Source: a virus
Taxonomy: Duplodnaviria > Heunggongvirae > Uroviricota > Caudoviricetes
Length of the DNA stretch: 32,820 nucleotides
Direction: 5' to 3' (one strand)
Virus record (IMG/VR): IMGVR_UViG_2541047822_000005
In this document: positions 1 to 32,820 of the stretch, one piece after another
Position numbering within the stretch: position 1 is the first letter of the stretch
How the letters are laid out: the number at the start of each line of letters is the position of its first letter
Made by a program: the position numbers and the translations under genes
The notes under the pieces: model-generated
Told to the model about the DNA's origin: nothing
Database searches by the model: none
What the model saw: the letters and a program-made list of their open reading frames with translations, nothing else

Positions 1-483
1 ATGACGAAGAAAAAAGCACATAAACCTGGTTCAGCGACCATCGCGCTTAACAAGCGCGCCCGGCACGAATACTTTATCGAAGAAGAGTTCGAGGCGGGAC
101 TTGCCCTGCAAGGCTGGGAGGTTAAATCCCTGCGTGCAGGAAAAGCCAATATCAGCGACAGCTACGTCCTTCTGCGTGACGGAGAGGCATTTCTGTTTGG
201 CGCTAACATCACGCCAATGGCTGTGGCCTCCACGCATGTGGTGTGCGATCCTACCCGTACCCGCAAGTTACTTCTCAACCAGCGCGAACTGGACTCATTG
301 TACGGTCGCGTCAATCGAGAAGGCTATACCGTAGTGGCGCTCTCCCTGTACTGGAAAAATGCCTGGTGCAAAGTGAAAATCGGCGTCGCCAAAGGTAAGA
401 AACAGCATGATAAACGTTCAGATATCAAAGAACGCGAATGGCAGGTGGATAAAGCGCGTATCATGAAAAACGCCCACCGTTAA
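1..483 (+). CDS. smpB: SsrA-binding protein SmpB
   Basis: 160-aa ORF whose translation I recognise as enterobacterial SmpB; lies immediately upstream of ssrA as in the conserved smpB-ssrA locus. Confidence 0.95.
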
Positions 484-697: not shown

Positions 698-1060
698 GGG
701 GCTGATTCTGGATTCGACGGGATTTGCGAAACCCAAGGTGCATGCCGAGGGGCGGTTGGCCTCGTAAAAAGCCGCAAAAAATAGTCGCAAACGACGAAAA
801 CTACGCTTTAGCAGCTTAATAACCTGCTTAGAGCCCTCTCTCCCTAGCCTCCGCTCTTAGGACGGGGATCAAGAGAGGTCAAACCCAAAAGAGATCGCGT
901 GGAAGCCCTGCCTGGGGTTGAAGCGTTAAAACTTAATCAGGCTAGTTTGTTAGTGGCGTGTCCGTCCGCAGCTGGCAAGCGAATGTAAAGACTGACTAAG
1001 CATGTAGTACCGAGGATGTAGGAATTTCGGACGCGGGTTCAACTCCCGCCAGCTCCACCA
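698..1060 (+). ncRNA. ssrA: tmRNA (transfer-messenger RNA)
   Basis: Begins GGGGCTGATTCTGGATTCGACGGG and ends GGTTCAACTCCCGCCAGCTCCACCA; 363 nt with the tag-peptide reading frame region, matching enterobacterial ssrA as I recall it. Confidence 0.9.
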
Positions 1061-1070
1061 AATAAATCAA

Positions 1071-1103: not shown

Positions 1104-1183
1104 AGTAGTGGCGGCAAAATGGCGACAGACTTTTGCGTCCATCTTGCCTGTCGCCATCTTGAAATCATGCAAAGAGGTTTCAC

Positions 1184-7644: not shown

Positions 7645-8817
7645 TTACGCGCTGACCTGGCTGGAGAAATTCACCAGGTACTGATCGGTGATGCGCTGAC
7701 GCAGCATCAGGTTTTCAAGTGGCGGCACTGGCGTGTAGTCGTAGTCGATGGTGAGTTTTCCGGCTTTCAGCGTGTCTTTGTCGTTCACCGACTCATCCAG
7801 CCAGCAATCACCACCAATGAGATAGCCCTGACTGACCAGGCTGCGCATTTTGGCGCGGATACCCTCGATAATGTCGCGGGCCAGCGACGGATTCAGCGGT
7901 TTATCCACCGCCCACATGTGCGCTTCTGCCATCGTGTCCGTCAGCACCTGCGCCGTGCGGGTGTAGTTTTCGAAGGCAAAGAGCGGGTCATCACTCAGGC
8001 AGCGGGAACCCCAGAAGCGAAAACCGTCTTTGCGGATAAGGGTGGTGACGTCGTTCTGGTTCAGCAGTCCCGCATCGGTTGCCGGGTCCTGCAGATCCCA
8101 GAACACATCAGCAGAAATTCCGGTGACACCGTTAACGCCCACGTTGGACAGGCTTTTGTGCCATCCGGTCTGCTCGTCAATTTTGGCGCGCAGACCAAGC
8201 GCACGGGCGGTGGCATAAGCCGTTGCTTCGGCATTCAGCACCGTGTCCCAGCCAGTAAAGTCGGGCCAGATCAGCATTCCTTCACGCTGACTGAAGTTTT
8301 CACGGTAAGTGATTGCTTCCTGCACTGTCTTGCAACCATACGCTGACAGGTAAGCAAATCCACGCAGGCTTTGCGCCACGCTCAGCAACTCAGTAGCTAC
8401 CGCCTTCGTGTCGTGACCTGGCACGCCGAGAATGCGCGGTTTAACGCCGAGCTGTGACTGGGCAGATAACAGGGCTTTCATGCCTGTTTTTTTACCTTCA
8501 GCGGTCACTGCGCCGATGATATTGGTCGTGGTTTCGTCTTCCGTTTCACCCTGCGGCACACGCACAACAACGGTCACGGGTTTTGCCTGGTCAGCGATGG
8601 CATCCAGCGAACGAGCCAGCGTGCCTGACTCACCCGCTTTACCGCTGGCAGTCAGCACATCAGTGATCAGCACGGGTTTATTAAGAGGAAACATTTTTGC
8701 ATCGGCATCATCGCCCGTGCAGACCATACCCACGATGGCGGTGCTCACCGTGGTAATGGATCGGGTGCCTTCGTTGACTTCAACAACGCGCACCCCGTGG
8801 TGGTAATCCTGAGCCAT
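7645..8817 (-). CDS. FI: contractile tail sheath protein FI
   Basis: 390-aa ORF with gpFI-like translation; first gene of the tail operon. Confidence 0.9.
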
Positions 8818-8893
8818 AGTGGCGAACCTCCTGATTGGATTAGGCTTCGCCCTATGTTGAAGTGATTGTGCCTGACAAACAGCTAAGCGCAGT

Positions 8894-8911
8894 TGTACCG
8901 TTATTCACACA
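8894..8911. promoter_or_regulatory. putative Ogr-dependent late promoter element (TGT-N12-ACA) for the FI operon
   Basis: TGTACCGTTATTCACACA dyad about 80 bp upstream of the FI start, consistent with the TGT-N12-ACA element of P2 late promoters. Confidence 0.5.
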
Positions 8912-8959
8912 AAATGACGGTATTTGTCTACTTTCAGGGATAATCAAAATAAAGCTGAT

Positions 8960-9532
8960 TCAGGGAGATTTATTGTTCTTATTTGCCGGAAATTTTCGAT
9001 AAATGGTAGAAACGCCTACATCAAAAATCAGTGCAATACGCTGTCTTGATTCTCCGGCCTCGAGTAAACGCCCAATCTGTGCCCACTGTTCGCTGGTCAA
9101 CTTAGGACGGCGTCCACCTACTCTGCCTTTAGCACGAGCTGCAGCCAGCCCCGCCCTGGTACGTTCAACTATCAGTTCGCGTTCCATTTCAGCCAGGGCA
9201 CCCATGACATGAAAAAAGAAACGGCCCATTGGGGTGCTGGTATCAATACTGTCAGTCAGGCTTCGGAAATTCACGCCACGCTGGCGCAGCTCTTCTATCA
9301 GCGTAACAAGATGCCGCATACTGCGCCCCAGTCTGTCCAGCTTCCAGACAACCAGCGTGTCTCCTGCCGATAGTGTCCTGAGCAGCTTTTTCAGCCCCGG
9401 TCTGTCGGACTTGGTGCCACTGATTTTATCCTCAAAAATCCGCTCACATCCCGCACAGTTCAGTGCATTGCGTTGCAAATCGGTGTTCTGGTCATTTGTT
9501 GACACGCGTACATAGCCAATAAGCATGATCAT
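8960..9532 (-). CDS. Hin/Gin/Pin-family serine DNA invertase
   Basis: 190-aa ORF with the serine recombinase N-terminus IGYVRVSTNDQ and a C-terminal HTH; sits beside inverted crossover sites flanking the tail-fibre 3' region. True start may be 2 codons downstream. Confidence 0.9.
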   Translation of the reverse strand: MIMLIGYVRVSTNDQNTDLQRNALNCAGCERIFEDKISGTKSDRPGLKKLLRTLSAGDTLVVWKLDRLGRSMRHLVTLIEELRQRGVNFRSLTDSIDTSTPMGRFFFHVMGALAEMERELIVERTRAGLAAARAKGRVGGRRPKLTSEQWAQIGRLLEAGESRQRIALIFDVGVSTIYRKFPANKNNKSP

Positions 9533-9581
9533 CCCCCTGAATAAAAACCGGAGATGATGCCAGTTAGCCGTTATCTCTGCA

Positions 9582-9607
9582 TTTTCATAAACGTTGGTTT
9601 GGGAGAA
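9582..9607. repeat. hix/gix-like inversion crossover site (left)
   Basis: TTTTCATAAACGTTGGTTTGGGAGAA is an inverted copy of the site at 11383-11408, sharing the 14-nt core TTCTCCCAAACCAA. Confidence 0.7.
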
Positions 9608-9913
9608 GCGGCAAAACGGAATGTGGGAACAGGGGAAAATCAGATACCTAGTATGTCAGAATGGACATCTGGGACAGGATGGAATAGAGACCCGTCGGGG
9701 AGAATAATACAGCGGGGATTTGCTATGGCATCAAATCAAACTAACATTTTATTCCCGATACCATTTCCGTATGACGATTTCGAAGTTATCGTTTGTGCAG
9801 CAGATACAGGAACAAATAAAGGGGCCGTAAATGTGTTGCAAAAATCGAGGCAGGGGTTTTCTGTTTCACAGGTTGGAAGTATGCCAGTCGCATACAGATG
9901 GATAGCGGGGTGA
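9608..9913 (+). CDS. silent alternative tail-fibre C-terminal segment
   Basis: Reading frame continuous through the crossover site; both copies encode GLGE in frame, so inversion would fuse this 102-codon segment to the constant part of H. Confidence 0.55.
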   Translation, partial: AAKRNVGTGENQIPSMSEWTSGTGWNRDPSGRIIQRGFAMASNQTNILFPIPFPYDDFEVIVCAADTGTNKGAVNVLQKSRQGFSVSQVGSMPVAYRWIAG

Positions 9914-10356
9914 TTGAAATGTATAAATTTGATCCAAAGAATGCATTATTCTATCCTGCTGCGTCAATTTCCGATTATAAATTGAGCGAAGATGAAATCG
10001 CCACATTCACTGATATTAGCGAGGAGGATGCAACCGAGTTTTTAGGATTCCCGCCGACTGGAAAAATCAGAGGGTCGGACGGTTATGGCAATCCTGCATG
10101 GGTTGAAATACCTCCACCATCACATGAGGAACTTATTGAACAGGCCGAATCAGAGAGGCAATTATTGATTAACCATGCCAACGAATACATGAACAGTAAA
10201 CAATGGCCTGGTAAAGCGGCTATTGGTCGTCTGAATGGTGAGGAACTGGCGCAATATAATTTGTGGCTGGATTATCTGAACGCACTGGAACTGGTTGATA
10301 CCTCCAGTCCGCCAGATATTGAATGGCCTACGCCTCCGGCAGTTCAGGCCAGATGA
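9898..10356 (+). CDS. alternative tail fibre assembly chaperone
   Basis: 152-aa ORF with Tfa-like translation, convergent with G inside the invertible segment. Confidence 0.75.
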   Translation: MDSGVIEMYKFDPKNALFYPAASISDYKLSEDEIATFTDISEEDATEFLGFPPTGKIRGSDGYGNPAWVEIPPPSHEELIEQAESERQLLINHANEYMNSKQWPGKAAIGRLNGEELAQYNLWLDYLNALELVDTSSPPDIEWPTPPAVQAR

Positions 10357-23693: not shown

Positions 23694-23729
23694 CATACTC
23701 ATAACATCAAAACCCGACCAACTCTCACA

Positions 23730-23766
23730 ACGCCTCAGCAGCATTCTGCGGGGCGTTTCTTTTTGC
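23730..23766 (+). terminator. putative terminator after the P-Q operon
   Basis: Imperfect GC-rich hairpin (ACGCC...GGCGT) followed by TTCTTTTT. Confidence 0.4.
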
Positions 23767-23849
23767 CCTGAATCTCCCCCCCCCTCCACTAAATGAGGCC
23801 GCCAGCGGGCCAGAGGCTGTGCCGGATTTTGGCCATTTTACCCCGTTGC

Positions 23850-23873
23850 GCGCGCTCGTATCCCCGCCACGCC
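23850..23873. other. cos site (cohesive-end region)
   Basis: The reverse complement of this stretch reads GGCGTGGCGGGG..., matching the start of the 19-nt cohesive end of phage 186 as I recall it; located between Q and the early region as in P2/186. Confidence 0.55.
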
Positions 23874-23916
23874 TGCCCGCTTTGTGTAGTGGTTTTCATG
23901 CACCTGCATGACATAA

Positions 23917-23942
23917 GCAAAAGCCCGCCAGTTCTGGCGGGC
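23917..23942 (-). terminator. putative terminator of the tum-like/dinI-like transcript
   Basis: Perfect 8-bp GC stem (GCCCGCCA / TGGCGGGC) followed on the minus strand by TTTTGC. Confidence 0.45.
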
Positions 23943-24076
23943 CTGAGCAAAAACGATCCTCAAACGATCATGCGATTTCATGCGGCATAGACATGCACAA
24001 CAGCACTAACGCCTCGCGTGGCTCGTTGTTCAACCTTGCGGACGGTAAAAACCAGTTTTATCGTCCGCAACGTTCG

Positions 24077-24310
24077 CTAATGTAACCAGCTGTCGTCCTC
24101 CCAGACCTGCTGCATTATTTCCATCACTCGCTTTTTATCTTCATCCAGTTTTAACCCGCTCAGCTCAACGCCGTTGGCACTGCCCTTACGGATACGAATT
24201 GCTGTTTTGGGATACAGAGGGCGCAAATTACGGTAAAGCTCGGATTCAAGGGCGTCCAGTGTAGCCTGGCTAATCTTCTGCTCTTTATCGATCATTATTT
24301 CAATGCGCAT
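24077..24310 (-). CDS. DinI-like protein
   Basis: 77-aa ORF whose translation resembles the DinI family; downstream of a LexA-boxed small gene. Confidence 0.75.
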   Translation of the reverse strand: MRIEIMIDKEQKISQATLDALESELYRNLRPLYPKTAIRIRKGSANGVELSGLKLDEDKKRVMEIMQQVWEDDSWLH

Positions 24311-24321
24311 ACAGATTTCCC

Positions 24322-24510
24322 TTAACTGGTTACGTCCATTGACCGGCAGTATTCATGGCTGCGGATTTTCGCCATCAGCTCGTCGGTCAATTCAGACACC
24401 CACTGGATAGCCAGCCGCTTTTCTTCGTCGCTGCACTCACTAGCCGCTACAAGCTTAATAAAAAAATCAATGCGCTGGAGCTTCAACGACTCCAAAAGAT
24501 AGTCCTGCAT
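24322..24510 (-). CDS. small LexA-regulated protein, possibly Tum-like antirepressor
   Basis: 62-aa ORF from the internal ATG, which has a strong AGGAGGG ribosome-binding site (track ORF is 24322..24537). Function assigned only by position and the LexA box. Confidence 0.5.
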   Translation of the reverse strand: MQDYLLESLKLQRIDFFIKLVAASECSDEEKRLAIQWVSELTDELMAKIRSHEYCRSMDVTS

Positions 24511-24558
24511 CTTCCCTCCTATCACGACCCCGGACATGCGTTAACTGTATGCATATCC

Positions 24559-24578
24559 ACTGTTTATATATACAGTAT
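24559..24578. promoter_or_regulatory. LexA box (SOS operator)
   Basis: ACTGTTTATATATACAGTAT matches the CTGT-N8-ACAG consensus, about 50 nt upstream of the small-gene start; an additional CTGT half-site lies at about 24545. Confidence 0.7.
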
Positions 24579-24671
24579 ACCCCTGATATCCAAAAGTAAA
24601 ATATTTTTTATCCGTCAATGAGAACGTTCTTACGAGGGTCGTTAAGAGCATGAATTGTTAAAGCCTTGCCG

Positions 24672-27065
24672 TCAGTACCACTGGCGCCATTTGTCATCTT
24701 CCTGCAGTCGATGGTTGCGGTAAAAAATCCGTAGCCCGGCACCTGACGGAATGCTGCCACCACGCAGAAGCAAATCAATCTCAGATGCACTACCTTCAAA
24801 CCCTCTGGCAGTCAGTTCTGCCTCAAGCTGCAGGCGCTGCTGCTCCGAAATACTCTGTTTGAATGCTTTTTTCCGCTTCGGTTTTACCAGTCTTAACCTG
24901 GCTGTCAGCTCCCGGCGTTCCTTCTGGCCCATATTGTGGAGGTAATCGTGCAGTTCCTGCTCATTCATGGTTTTAATATCTGGCAAATCACCCCCTGATT
25001 TGTTCAGATTTTCAACAGGGGGACAGTTATTGCCACGAGTCCAAGGGGCGCAAGCGCCCTGGTCGGCTGCCGCCTCCTGAACGTCAACGGCCTTACGAAC
25101 CATTTTCCACTTCACGGCATGAGTGCAGATCTTGCCCTCTGCAATAGGTGACCAGATGCCATAAATACGAATGCCGTGATCGCCATAGGCGGTCGGCTCT
25201 TCGTTGATTTCATAAGCAGTTCTGATGAGGTGATATTTACGGGGAACCAGTACGCCGCCCTGCTTCATGATGTAGGTGGCAAAACAACCAGCATCAGCAG
25301 CAGCCAGAATGGCATCAAGACGCGGGTTATCCAGTACCGGCGCACCTGCTTTTTTGTCACCCTGTTGCCTTGCCGCCTGACCAGCCAGCAAGCGAAGTTC
25401 ACGGTAAGCCTGACGCCCCGGAATACCAAAGAAGCGGAATTGCTGAACACGATGCAGAGACGCCCAGGCATTCACGTATTCAGCGTTATCACGCAGAGAT
25501 TTACCCGTTTCCTTGCTGATCTCGCCAGCCAGACCACGACCGTCAATGTTCTTACTGATATATTTCGCGATGTAGCTTGTCGGCGTTCCTTTGCGCGGGT
25601 TAATCAACTCAGACTTAAAGCGCGGCCCAGTGTTATTGCCCAGCTCCTCGCGGTCTTCACGGATGGCAAACTTACGCAGTAATGCAGTGATGGCACGGCG
25701 GTCTTTTTTGCGCATGAAACACAACAGGTGCCAGTGAACTGTGCCATCATGATGCGGCTCAGCCACCCGCACGCCATACCAGCGCAACCCGGCTTTGTGC
25801 ATCGCCTTACGAAATGCAGCAAACATGCCGACCAGATAATCGCTGCTTTGTCTTACCGTCGCGTTTGTCCAGGTCGGGTTTGGTCTGCCGTTATTTAGCG
25901 TGGAATGGAAACGCGACGGACAGGTGATAGTGTAGAAAACGGCGCAGTCACCGCGCATTTCCGCGATAAGCTCCAGACCTTTAACACAGGCCATCATCTC
26001 ATTGCGGCGATGCGCAGGGTTGCTGCTGCTGGCGTTTACCACATCCTCCATGTCCAGCGTGTCGCCGTCTTCGTTCACCAGTTCATGAGAACGGAAAAAC
26101 TCCAGCGACTTACGGCGCTGCTCACGTTTATGCATCACGGCTTCATAGCTGACATAAGGAGATGCTTTTTTGCTGACTAGGCAAACAGCGCGCAACTGCT
26201 CTTCCCGCCATTCGCAACGCATCTTCCATAATTTCCGATACCACCAGTCGGCGCACAACATACGCGCCAGCGAACCCGGAATGAGTTCATAGGGCACGGG
26301 TTTACGGCGGTTTCTTTTCCGACGAAGTTTCTCAAACGCAGGCGGGATAACATCCAGACGCAGGGTTTCCGCAGCCACCTTTTCCCATGTCTTGCGGATT
26401 TCTTCTGGCTTAACGTCATCGGTGGCGTACAAATCACCACAAGCGGCCTCAAGACACATGCTCATATGCGCTGCTACCAGGGTGGACAGGCGTTTCACCT
26501 GATCCTGGCTCATTTCAGGCAGGATCAGCAGCCCCTCCAGCCCTTGATGGCTTGCCATAAAACGGAAAGAAACAGATAGCTGACTGTCACGTACACAATC
26601 CAGTCGCTCCAGACATGGCTTAATCGTCTCACGCAAATAGCGGGAATAAGCCTTTGGCCTGCCCAGGCTGCTGAAGTATTCGATACGTTGCATCAGCGGC
26701 TTGCTGATATGAGAAGGCTGGGCGCTGACATCTGCCAGAATGACCATGTCCGGGTTAAAACGCTGCTGCTCATGCGCCAGCTTTGCCCGGCTAATGAGCT
26801 TATCCTGCTCCATTTCGCGCTGGACAGGATCACGGGATTCATTAAAGAAATAACGCTCCCAGACCTGCTCACTCAGTGCCTCGCGGCGCAGTTGTTCCTG
26901 CTCGTTATCGGCAGCGTACAGAGTGATCAGGTTTGAAAGTGCAGACTCCGGCGCAACTTCCGCCGGATCCAGATAAGGGTTAATGGCCTTTTTCGGGCCG
27001 TTCCATGAAAATGCTGCGGCAGCCTCGTTAAAGCCGCTAGAGTTGCTCATATCGTCATGACTCAT
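24672..27065 (-). CDS. A: replication initiation protein A (rolling-circle nickase)
   Basis: 797-aa ORF with gpA-family translation in the expected early-operon position. Confidence 0.85.
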
Positions 27066-29748: not shown

Positions 29749-29991
29749 TTACTTACCAACAATGACGCGGAAGTTGGAATGACCGAGGGATTCACGGACC
29801 TGATCGGTTTTGTACATTAAATAACGCAGGCTTACGCGGCCTTTGTTTTTTTCTTTCTTGACCATGTATTTAGCAAGCTGACCATGGTGAATTTTTTGAT
29901 ACACGGAGCCGCGGGAGATACCTTCCCATTCCGCGAACTCAGCAGGCGTTGCCATCTCTTTTGGTACACGAATTGAAATATCAGTACTCAT
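29749..29991 (-). CDS. apl: Apl/Cox-like excisionase and transcription regulator
   Basis: 80-aa basic helix-turn-helix protein, first gene of the lytic operon, divergent from cI. Confidence 0.7.
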   Translation of the reverse strand: MSTDISIRVPKEMATPAEFAEWEGISRGSVYQKIHHGQLAKYMVKKEKNKGRVSLRYLMYKTDQVRESLGHSNFRVIVGK

Positions 29992-30101: not shown

Positions 30102-30740
30102 TTGATTATGAGTTTAATCAAGGCGGGGAATGATAGTGGTGGGCGCGATGCGATTAATAGGCTTATTAAGGCTTACAACTTCAGCTCACGACAGCAGCTC
30201 TGCGAACATCTGGAAGTATCAAAAAGCACTATGGCTAACAGATACTTAAGGGATAGCTTTCCTGCCGAATGGGTAATCCAATGTGCCCTTGAAACAGGAG
30301 CTTCCCTTCTATGGCTGGCTACTGGTCAAGGAGATATGTATGCGTGTGAGAACGAAGAAACAAATCTCAAAAATGAACCTCCCGTCACTGTAAGACCACT
30401 TTCTAAGATCGTTGCTCCTAGCATCAAACGTGTTGAACTGAAGAACGGCGAACTGCAGCCAAGTGATGAAATTCTTCTTGATAGCAGCCTGCTCGATGGT
30501 GACTCATCCAACGCTTTATTTGTTAAAACAGCTAATGATAGCTTTGTAGTGGATACGTCTGTTAAACAAGTCAGTAATGGCTTCTGGTTAGTCGATATGG
30601 ACGGAGTTAAAAGCATCGTCAAAATTGCGCGCATACCCGGAAACAAAATAGTAGTTAACCAAGATGACACTTCATTTGAATGTTCTGTAGATGATGTGGA
30701 AGTCGTAGGACGTGCAGTCAAAGTAATCAAGAACCTCTAA
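30102..30740 (+). CDS. cI: CI-like immunity repressor (186 type)
   Basis: 212-aa ORF with an N-terminal helix-turn-helix and a distinct C-terminal domain; upstream of and co-oriented with int. Confidence 0.75.
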   Translation: MIMSLIKAGNDSGGRDAINRLIKAYNFSSRQQLCEHLEVSKSTMANRYLRDSFPAEWVIQCALETGASLLWLATGQGDMYACENEETNLKNEPPVTVRPLSKIVAPSIKRVELKNGELQPSDEILLDSSLLDGDSSNALFVKTANDSFVVDTSVKQVSNGFWLVDMDGVKSIVKIARIPGNKIVVNQDDTSFECSVDDVEVVGRAVKVIKNL

Positions 30741-30743
30741 CTT

Positions 30744-31784
30744 ATGACCATCAGAAAACAGCCGAACGGAAAATGGTTGTGTGAGTGCTATCCCAATGGA
30801 CGCAATGGTAAGCGCGTGCGTAAGCAATTTGCTACCAAAGGCGAAGCCATTGCGTTTGAAAGCTTCACAATGGAAGAAGTGAACAAAAAACCATGGCTAG
30901 GGGAAAAGGAAGATCGGCGACATCTATCAGAATTAATTGAGCTGTGGTATTCCCTGTATGGTCAAACACTCGCAGACCCCAAGCGCCTCATGGCGAAACT
31001 TAGAATTATCTGTAATGGTCTAGGCGATCCCATCGCCTCAGAACTGACAGCTGGTGAGTTTACGAAATACCGCGAAGCACGGTTAAAAGGTGAAGTACGA
31101 AATGAAGATGGCACGCTTATGTCGCCCGTTAAGCCCCGCACGGTAAATCTTGAACAGCGCAACCTATCATCTGTTTTTGGTACACTGAAAAAGCTGGGCC
31201 ACTGGTCAGCCCCCAACCCGCTTGCTGGGCTGCCAACATTTAAAATTGCTGAGGGTGAATTGGCGTTCCTGACCCCGGAAGAAATTAAACGTCTGCTGGA
31301 TGCCTGTGCTGATTCTCAAAGCCCCAGTCTGCTGATGATTGCAAAAATATGCTTGGCCACCGGCGCACGCTGGAGCGAAGCCGAAAACCTACAGAGTCAT
31401 CAGGTATCAAAATACCGTATCACTTATACCAAGACTAAAGGAAAGAAAAACCGAACAGTGCCTATTTCAAAGGATTTATATGAAGAACTGCCTAAGAATA
31501 GGGGAAAATTATTTACACCTTGTAGGAAAGCTTTTGAACGTGCGGTAAAACGAGCTGGTATCGAGCTACCAGAAGGGCAATGCACACACGTATTACGACA
31601 TACATTTGCAAGTCACTTTATGATGAATGGCGGAAACATACTGGTGCTGCGCGATATTCTGGGCCATGTCGATATAAAAATGACAATGATTTACGCCCAC
31701 TTCGCTCCCGACCATCTGGAAGATGCTGTAACCAAAAATCCTCTTGCTAACCTTGGATGGAGAAAATTAGAAAGTGCTTGTTAA
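30744..31784 (+). CDS. int: tyrosine integrase
   Basis: 346-aa ORF with the tyrosine-recombinase C-terminal motifs (R...HVLRHTFASHFMMNGG...LGH...MTMIYAH). Confidence 0.9.
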   Translation: MTIRKQPNGKWLCECYPNGRNGKRVRKQFATKGEAIAFESFTMEEVNKKPWLGEKEDRRHLSELIELWYSLYGQTLADPKRLMAKLRIICNGLGDPIASELTAGEFTKYREARLKGEVRNEDGTLMSPVKPRTVNLEQRNLSSVFGTLKKLGHWSAPNPLAGLPTFKIAEGELAFLTPEEIKRLLDACADSQSPSLLMIAKICLATGARWSEAENLQSHQVSKYRITYTKTKGKKNRTVPISKDLYEELPKNRGKLFTPCRKAFERAVKRAGIELPEGQCTHVLRHTFASHFMMNGGNILVLRDILGHVDIKMTMIYAHFAPDHLEDAVTKNPLANLGWRKLESAC

Positions 31785-31890
31785 TAACTATATCCAACAA
31801 TACCCATGGATATCGTACTTACTTATCATAATATATTTTTTATATATATGCCTTGAATTATATCTATGCGTATCAAAAAAAGGCTTTAAC

Positions 31891-32820
31891 ATGGATGAAA
31901 GGCCATTAACAAGTCAATACTTATTTAAACAATCACTTAGGATTCCTGTATTTTCAGCGATATACTTTGGTATATTTTCCTGGCTTGGACATTCCCCTCA
32001 ATTTGATAGTGAGGGCTTTAATAATTTCATTGCAATTAGCAAGCTTCCTATCGCCTTACTTTCTTTGTCCATACCATTTGTTGCTGTCGTAGCAAACATA
32101 CACCGCACAGTTCAAACAAACCGACAAATTGAGGAAACCAAGCAAAAGAATCTATCTGATAGCTACTATAGCCATCTAAAGTTCGTTACTGATTATTTCA
32201 CCAATTTACCTAACAAAACCATTAAACGCGAACGTCATTATGGTACTAAAGAGATAAGTTATAAAATAAACTACCCAATACATCTATATAGATATATTTT
32301 CATAAATAGCTCACCAGAGAAGGGACGGCCTAAAAATACAGATAAAGAATACATACGTGAAGTAAATAATCACTGGGTTGATATACTAAAAAACCTAGAG
32401 AAGATACATTCATCTAATCGTGGCTCTCAGTTTGCCGAAGTTTTAATCCGTCAAATGCAATCTCTTCATTCAATAGAAAAACACTTATCCGAACTTAATC
32501 GAATGCTTTGCCTAACTCCCATGGAGTTAAATGAACATGCAACTTTATACTTTGATGGATATGAAATGATTACTAACTTCATGTCCAGCATTGAACTTGG
32601 CGATACAATTGAAACCTACTTCAAATTTACCATTGATATTCTTGATATTACCGATAATTTCCTTTCATTCAAGGATGATGGCTCGTCTGGGCAAATCATT
32701 ATACTAGCAAGATTACTGAAAGATAATAATCCAGCTATCTTTGATGAAATTGTAACAAACAAAGGGAAGGCTCAACCTTCGTTGACCTACAATGGCGACA
32801 GATTGGCGACAGAACATTAA
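31891..32820 (+). CDS. hypothetical AT-rich protein with two predicted N-terminal transmembrane helices
   Basis: 309-aa ORF from the internal ATG (track ORF 31774..32820 overlaps the int 3' end). Two hydrophobic segments, IPVFSAIYFGIFSWLG and ISKLPIALLSLSIPFVAVVANI, are followed by a soluble domain; codon usage is markedly AT-rich. Confidence 0.6.
   Translation: MDERPLTSQYLFKQSLRIPVFSAIYFGIFSWLGHSPQFDSEGFNNFIAISKLPIALLSLSIPFVAVVANIHRTVQTNRQIEETKQKNLSDSYYSHLKFVTDYFTNLPNKTIKRERHYGTKEISYKINYPIHLYRYIFINSSPEKGRPKNTDKEYIREVNNHWVDILKNLEKIHSSNRGSQFAEVLIRQMQSLHSIEKHLSELNRMLCLTPMELNEHATLYFDGYEMITNFMSSIELGDTIETYFKFTIDILDITDNFLSFKDDGSSGQIIILARLLKDNNPAIFDEIVTNKGKAQPSLTYNGDRLATEH

Follow-up and report, generated by a model that had tools for sequence, protein, structure and literature searches.

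A membrane-protein gene in the polymorphic int-att slot of a 186-like prophage is a candidate for a new phage-defence family

An AT-rich gene stands directly downstream of the integrase gene at one end of a P2/186-type prophage (Peduoviridae, 186-like) of E. coli. It raises two questions: does it belong to the prophage, and what might its product do there? The DNA analysed here, referred to as the window, is 32,820 nt long (IMG/VR record IMGVR_UViG_2541047822_000005). It contains smpB and ssrA at its left end, followed by the prophage; the AT-rich ORF 3' of int, gene X, is the last gene of this prophage. An initial annotation, made from the window alone, placed X inside the prophage as horizontally acquired cargo, gave its product 309 aa with two transmembrane (TM) helices and an unrecognised soluble domain, and suspected a role in defence.

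Limits of the prophage and reading frame of gene X

The features of the window that bear on X are listed in Table 1. Other prophage genes encode tail, head and terminase functions, a Dam-type methylase and homologues of CII and Fil; RefSeq annotation of identical loci agrees with that of the window. The gene X region is 100% identical in E. coli CFSAN051542. It is at least 98.5% identical in 12 of 5,426 complete E. coli genomes and about 89% identical in two more, and part of 'Klebsiella phage Kp4865-2' matches it at 99.3% identity.

Table 1. Coordinates of gene X, its encoded segments and the surrounding features in the window
Feature	Coordinates	Strand	Basis
smpB	1-483		
ssrA (tmRNA), integration target; 3' end = attL	698..1060	+	ARAGORN; Rfam RF00023, 295.8 bits
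att core region, 47 nt, repeated as attR just past the window end	1016..1062	+	blastn 100% against L190 DNA 3' of the gene X stop; read directly in L001 and L002
Two inverted TGGCGACAG copies, putative Int arm-type sites, attL side	1120..1156 (1120-1128 +; 1148-1156 -)		copy count
Replication gene A	24672-27065	-	
Apl/Cox-like excisionase-repressor, first in divergent lytic operon	29749..29991	-	PHROG 6912/575
CI repressor, first in lysogenic operon	30102..30740	+	RefSeq 'phage repressor protein CI' in identical locus; PHROG 4
Tyrosine integrase (int)	30744..31784	+	RefSeq 'site-specific integrase'; Pfam Int_N + Phage_integrase in homologous loci
Gene X, probable full-length form, 348 aa, GTG start, 11-nt overlap with int stop	31774..32820	+	ORF list, homologues
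Gene X, 309-aa form (ATG), as in the initial annotation	31891..32820	+	ORF list; RefSeq WP_000344474.1
TM1 of X (residues 14-34)	31813..31875	+	top Kyte-Doolittle peak 2.35; AF2 helix 12-34
TM2 of X (residues 57-72), short periplasmic loop (predicted), TM3 (91-109)	31942..32100	+	AF2 helices 49-69, 90-143; hydropathy, positive-inside statistics
Conserved juxtamembrane helix NIHRTVQTNRQIEETKQKNLSDSYYSHLK	32101..32208	+	two family alignments
Hypervariable alpha/beta C-terminal domain, predicted cytoplasmic	32209..32817	+	
Tandem TGGCGACAG-N2-TGGCGACAG in the last nine codons of X, putative Int arm-type sites, attR side	32793..32812	+	copy count

The window has a single copy of the 27-nt core of the ssrA 3' end (1034-1060), and allowing three mismatches adds no other; the initial statement that no copy follows int is correct within these limits. 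The second copy is found when the sequence is extended in related genomes, and it lies 3' of X and not between int and X. In identical loci the 47-nt ssrA repeat that forms attR begins 89 nt 3' of the X stop (measured in L190), and the ssrA core begins 107 nt 3' of this stop in five near-identical loci (L002, L024, L028 and L190, with L001 read directly). The DNA past attR varies by genome: it may be ypjA, a CP4-57-type intA island or other sequence. The position of attR just past X, together with the variable DNA beyond it, places X inside the prophage, as had been proposed. In identical loci no gene other than X lies between int and attR. The further suggestion that X might be the first gene of a larger island does not hold, since the prophage ends approximately 90 nt after the X stop. 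One locus checked for a reconstituted attP (L030) shares just 84 nt with the attL flank, and a circular 'plasmid' record considered as a possible attP source proved to be a chromosomal misassembly.

Several other features of the prophage were observed. A hairpin and T-run (AAGGGGTTACG...CGTAGCCCCTTTTT, 1064-1100) lies directly 3' of ssrA on the prophage side; it is presumably a phage-supplied replacement terminator of ssrA. Two plus-strand ORFs between attL and gpD, at the opposite prophage end from X, may be further cargo. The first (1184-1666) matches PHROG 2561 ('DNA ligase', E 2e-76) and no Pfam family; the second (1705-2136) has no match of any kind. A DNA invertase gene (8960-9532, minus strand; PHROG 125) adjoins oppositely oriented ORFs for a tail-fibre tip and tail-fibre assembly (9554-10356, plus strand), and the whole segment (8960-10356) resembles an invertible host-range segment of the Mu G or P1 C type. 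The main P2 defence hotspot, from the portal gene gpQ to the replication gene gpA, amounts to only about 1 kb here (23694-24671), where the only plausible ORFs are two small ones of 77 and 71 aa. As this hotspot is nearly bare, X may be the main accessory gene of the prophage.

Direct measurement confirms the low GC content of the region after int: 0.339 at 31785-32820, compared with 0.459 in int and 0.525 in the whole window. Values range from 0.33 to 0.37 along the X ORF and from 0.42 to 0.49 along int. The stop codon of X ends at the last base of the window. At the other end, the frame is open for 39 codons further upstream than the annotated ATG, from a GTG at 31774. Most homologues have an ATG start at the equivalent position, and in almost all of approximately 90 loci the first start codon of the X frame lies between -16 and +7 nt from the int stop. 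When homologues down to 25-30% identity are aligned, a hydrophobic helix is seen to be kept upstream of the annotated Met; this helix is present in 94 of 100 diverse family members. Only two of the 28 differences between alleles in the 39 upstream codons are at codon position 2, which is the pattern expected of a translated hydrophobic segment. X also has a full-length match to PHROG 17460, a phage protein family with no assigned function (E 3.7e-148), in which residues 1-293 of the 309-aa form align with positions 29-343 of the 343-position profile. This profile reaches 28 positions upstream of the ATG form, in agreement with a longer N-terminus.

On the basis of homologue starts, spacing from the int stop, sparing of codon position 2, the retained helix and the PHROG profile, translation of X probably starts at GTG 31774 and gives a product of 348 aa that has three TM helices. 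The ORF and the hydrophobic helices described initially are real; the length of 309 aa and the count of two helices are probably both too low. The longer form would correct the RefSeq start of a gene that is found in many genomes. Met40, the annotated start, has a conservation of 90% or more within the enterobacterial subfamily, and it may serve as an extra internal start. A holin-like dual-start arrangement was considered and dropped, as Met40 is not conserved across the wider family.

Occupancy of the slot between int and att

To describe the int-att interval independently of X, loci were sampled by integrase: 80 IMG/VR loci have an Int at least 89% identical to that of the window, of which 73 were assessable. 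Among these, 18 have an empty slot, another 18 have a member of the X family in it and the remaining 37 have other cargo. Empty slots measure 139-156 nt from the int stop to the ssrA core. X therefore shows both the location and the polymorphic occupancy of int-att cargo: it is a phage-borne accessory gene (moron) in a polymorphic int-attP cargo slot, and it is dispensable. The initial view of X as horizontally acquired cargo is upheld by these empty and differently filled intervals next to near-identical integrases.

This integrase is present in 214 E. coli genomes. In the E. coli genomes sampled, the slot is filled by genes unrelated to X. Its cargo includes a 585-aa protein that matches the PADLOC dCTPase model (E 2e-146) and is named 'anti-phage dCTP deaminase' in RefSeq, a SMEK-domain protein, an uncharacterised 513-aa protein and a 222-aa TM protein. 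The int-att position is a minor defence hotspot of P2 phages, with 3% of P2 defence systems (PMC13586616). A recognised defence gene in the slot of relatives, together with this hotspot status, strengthens the initial suspicion that X is defensive.

Two further kinds of cargo were observed. In L108 (3541-5096) and L122 (3641-5196), a dCTP-deaminase/dUTPase-like protein with a C-terminal TM helix is followed by a ThyX thymidylate synthase; this pairing is unusual. The commonest cargo other than X is an unannotated family of about 400 aa (L104 3525-4748, L109 3527-4732, L120, L123, L152, L155 and L182), which shares the core ...PLFRVRKS...FHIPF...QR[FY]SV[AS]GLPCLYLG.S...CW.EM... and has no significant match in Pfam or PADLOC. 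This family is another defence candidate.

The slot is bounded by short repeats. The window has five copies of TGGCGACAG where 0.42 would be expected, and four of them are at the prophage ends: an inverted pair lies 60-96 nt inside attL, and a tandem pair lies at the 3' end of X. Repeats of this type may be Int arm-type sites. The att-proximal 200 nt were examined for tandem repeats in L124, L135, L111 and L149. In prophages with an empty slot, a tandem TGGCG[GA]CA-N3-TGGCG[GA]CAG starts 4-5 nt after the int stop; consequently, cargo is inserted exactly between int and the repeats. Several X alleles, as well as the ORF of the unrelated 222-aa TM protein, run through the repeats to the same TAA. 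The C-terminal tail that they share, G-(D/T)-x-L-A-(A/T)-E-(H/S) (GxLAAE[HS]), is explained by this read-through to a common stop. Cargo ORFs are thus able to end inside the putative arm repeats of attP. The slot is flanked on one side by the 3' end of int and on the other by the tandem repeats; both flanks are conserved, which would allow cargo to be exchanged via homologous recombination.

Protein X and its family

AlphaFold2 (AF2) modelling of X from a 31-sequence alignment gives a mean pLDDT of 83.9. The model has helices at residues 12-34 (TM1) and 49-69 (TM2), a short loop, and a helix at 90-143 that combines TM3 with a long extension. An alpha/beta domain follows at 148-340; modelled alone, it has a pLDDT of 83 and a pTM of 0.83. 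Invariant or near-invariant residues are almost all found in the membrane module and the helix after TM3. They comprise L45, Q48, P58, W70 and P92 and, as polar residues of the helix NIHRTVQTNRQIEETKQKNLSDSYYSHLK, H110, R111, T112, Q114, T115, Q118, K125, N126, D129, H134 and K136.

Family-wide, K+R counts are 3.2 in loop 1 and 6.0 in the segment after TM3, and loop 2 is neutral. Under the positive-inside rule, these counts predict an N-out, C-in topology. The hydrophobicity of TM2 is no more than moderate; were this segment not to cross the membrane, the C-terminal domain (C-domain) would be periplasmic.

No known sensor or effector fold was found for X in sequence, profile or structure searches. 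Pfam has no match for X (zero families at E up to 10) or for 100 of its relatives, and NCBIfam gives only a 12-bit chance match (E 0.12). Scans of X and of the family against Pfam, NCBIfam and PADLOC yield no lead other than a weak 2TM effector match. The soluble domain is therefore unrecognised, as first described, and the Pfam and NCBIfam scans do not identify X as a known housekeeping membrane protein. Sequence searches of the PDB with X alone and with two family profiles find only designed helical bundles (E above 0.004), and Foldseek finds nothing for X in BFVD at E of 0.001 or less. A profile search with the N-terminal module (N-module) alone, aimed at fusions to known domains, returns 11 short or partial proteins, none with such domains. 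No description of the protein or of accession WP_000344474.1 was found in the literature, and none of the systems named in PMC13586616 resembles X. Both the family and its fold are thus uncharacterised; the type of locus, an AT-rich, probably defensive cargo gene in a prophage hotspot, is already known.

The family is large. With an E cutoff of 0.001, an exhaustive profile search yields 1,100 clusters (50% identity), 519 of which also pass a cutoff of 1e-10; most members are 320-380 aa long and match over nearly their full length. Genomes with relatives of X include Enterobacterales, Shewanella, Pseudomonas, Psychrobacter, Achromobacter and Vibrio. Members come from Gamma- and Betaproteobacteria and from two or more unrelated virus realms, and plasmids are essentially free of them.

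Among 80 IMG/VR contigs that carry X, all but a handful have the gene order CI, Int, X. The same order is found in E. coli, Providencia and Citrobacter genomes, both at ssrA and at other att sites. Outside 186-like phages, the gene is likewise found at the edges of mobile elements: it adjoins a lambda-type integrase in Xenorhabdus, smpB in Shewanella, where ssrA would be expected, and a KAP NTPase in Kosakonia. No conserved partner gene was found across the contexts examined; X therefore acts alone, if it acts at all.

Three further loci were observed. In the PM2-like Vibrio phage 10N.286.54.F4_PE001 (Vinavirales; L007 12875-14557), the gene immediately after an S24/LexA-type repressor, at the prophage end, encodes a homologue of the membrane module joined to another C-terminal part; the module is thus common to unrelated virus realms, in the same operon position. 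A Providencia alcalifaciens prophage (L008) has two diverged paralogues of the family (873-1946 and 8001-9056): one follows int, and the other is beside and convergent with the replication gene A (gpA). In L029 / L110 (IMGVR_UViG_2513237219_000007), the X allele of the window is broken after about 60 codons by an insertion of approximately 1.3 kb with a 317-aa ORF, presumably an IS element.

X diverges far more than the integrase beside it. In many loci Int is 91-96% identical to that of the window, while X is only 27-52% identical. For pairwise comparison, X was split after the conserved helix into the N-module and the C-domain. All N-module pairs can be aligned, with a median identity of 44%; only 40% of C-domain pairs are detectably similar (E below 1e-3), with a median identity of 25%. 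Since single linkage of C-domains nevertheless joins 77 of 79 alleles, these domains are homologous but highly diverged. Ratios of dN/dS were obtained from a pair of alleles that diverged together with the adjacent int, as similar dS values show. They are 0.03-0.04 for int, 0.08-0.11 for the N-module and 0.21-0.24 for the C-domain, which changes approximately six times faster than int. With dN/dS below 1 throughout, these ratios do not demonstrate positive selection on X.

These ratios bear on the reality of the gene. The low GC content of X and its annotation in databases as merely 'hypothetical' could point to non-coding AT-rich DNA in which a frame happens to be open, or to a decayed gene. 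However, dN/dS is 0.08-0.24 at a dS of 0.24-1.3, 96 of about 100 loci keep the frame intact, a large family matches it and the AF2 models are confident. The purifying selection on X indicates a real gene, and the conservation data already refute a chance or decayed frame.

Possible functions and comparison with known systems

X is on the same strand as cI and int and overlaps the int stop, and there is no terminator-like site on the plus strand between int and X. This arrangement suggests that X is the third gene of a lysogenic cI-int-X operon, translationally coupled to int and made in the lysogen. Expression would be from pL.

The product would be an inner-membrane protein with three TM helices, predicted to be N-out, C-in. 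A conserved polar juxtamembrane helix comes after TM3 and leads into an alpha/beta domain of some 200 aa that diverges fast and is predicted to be cytoplasmic. The variable domain may recognise a phage component. The conserved three-TM module, together with the polar helix, may be the effector and may act by disturbing the membrane. The outcome would be abortive infection or growth arrest, which would guard the lysogen against other phages.

We tentatively interpret X in this way, as a lysogen-expressed, membrane-anchored anti-phage protein with a cytoplasmic sensor and a membrane effector. This interpretation is based on a slot that holds a recognised defence gene, a conserved membrane module, a diversifying C-domain and the cI-int-X position. 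The second Providencia paralogue beside gpA and the PM2-like Vibrio homologue after a repressor also count in its favour, and similarity to a CBASS '2TM effector' profile of PADLOC is a weak hint in the same direction. Against it, some cargo of the slot, ThyX for example, has no obvious link to defence. No homology link between X and any validated defence protein was found, and X matches none of the full-system models of PADLOC. A broader proposal is slightly more tentative again: X may found a large, unrecognised family of single-chain anti-phage proteins (about 1,100 clusters), marked by a three-TM effector module, an H-R-T-x-Q-T...Q helix, a hypervariable cytoplasmic sensor, a fold unmatched in the PDB and BFVD, and expression from the lysogeny operon.

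Defence need not involve killing of the cell. X could be a superinfection-exclusion protein that, like P22 SieA, T4 Imm or HK97 gp15, keeps the genomes of incoming phages from passing the lysogen's inner membrane. Its predicted place in that membrane and the position of its gene in the lysogenic operon would suit this role, and a conserved host factor for phage entry could be the docking partner of the conserved membrane module. Exclusion is nonetheless unlikely, as the variable domain, predicted to be cytoplasmic, is ill-suited to sensing tail or ejection proteins in the periplasm, and X matches no Sie or Imm family of Pfam. It is similarly doubtful that X has nothing to do with defence and is a lysogenic-conversion factor, altering envelope physiology, stress tolerance or colonisation. 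Slots next to att sites are generally known to carry non-defence morons too; this very slot holds the nucleotide-metabolism genes for DCD-like and ThyX proteins, and X has no defence-domain signature. Conversion fits poorly with a family confined to the edges of prophages and mobile elements and essentially missing from plasmids, and the extreme allelic diversity of X beside near-identical integrases is typical of conflict genes.

The coupling of X to int and the overlap of its 3' end with the putative Int arm sites could also indicate a role in the cycle of the phage itself, such as control of integration or excision, anchoring of Int or timing of lysis. This is very improbable. Among prophages with an Int at least 89% identical, a quarter have an empty slot and half have unrelated cargo, so X is dispensable for integration; the unrelated 222-aa cargo ORF overlaps the repeats as well, and the lysis genes are elsewhere in the prophage.

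Overall, X is a good, well-supported candidate for a new phage-defence family, though one that would not surprise specialists. If it protects lysogens, the known defence repertoire would gain a family of single genes that is widespread and has a new fold, and the little-studied int-att slot of 186-like phages would become a productive source of such genes: in the sampled prophages with this integrase, a quarter carry an X allele and half carry other, mostly uncharacterised cargo. In P4 satellites, six of eight randomly chosen uncharacterised loci were protective when tested (PMC13586616). The natural series of alleles, with the same integrase and very different C-domains, is a resource for mapping specificity, and the conserved membrane helix offers clear targets for mutation.

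Among the known systems closest to X is the int-att cargo of P2-like prophages (PMC13586616), for example the anti-phage dCTP deaminase found in this slot. Like this cargo, X lies in the interval from int to the ssrA repeat, is AT-rich and shows polymorphic occupancy, including an empty state. Unlike the deaminase, to which it is unrelated, X contains no nucleotide-metabolism domain or other known domain.

The '2TM' effectors of CBASS, Pycsar and retron systems (PADLOC PDLC00691 and PDLC02912) are similar in that a short N-terminal TM hairpin precedes a cytoplasmic domain. PDLC00691 matches X weakly (E 8e-5) over TM2, TM3 and the helix that follows. This match extends to only two of 100 relatives at E of 0.01 or less. 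No CD-NTase (cyclase) gene is adjacent, X being alone between int and attR, and no SAVED or other ligand-binding domain for a nucleotide signal was found in X. X was for these reasons rejected as a CBASS 2TM effector. It also differs from such effectors in having a third TM helix and no cyclase, retron or other partner gene; the match probably reflects a resemblance between short TM hairpins and not membership.

X is encoded next to the repressor, as are lambda RexAB and other abortive-infection systems of lysogenic operons. RexB is a precedent for a membrane component as the presumed effector. Rex consists of two proteins, the sensor RexA and the four-TM RexB, whereas X would join both roles in one chain; no similarity of sequence or fold between X and Rex was found. 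P22 SieA and SieB, T4 Imm and HK97 gp15 are small inner-membrane proteins of phages or prophages that protect the host from other phages. X has no homology to these superinfection-exclusion proteins and differs from them in its large, variable and predicted cytoplasmic domain.

The P2 genes old, tin and fun(Z) are single-gene accessory functions in cargo slots of the P2 family (Rousset 2022, PMC9122126). They occupy other slots (gpA-gpQ and the tail region), and their products are soluble and unrelated to X in sequence. What they have in common with X is that each is single-gene accessory cargo of a P2-family phage.
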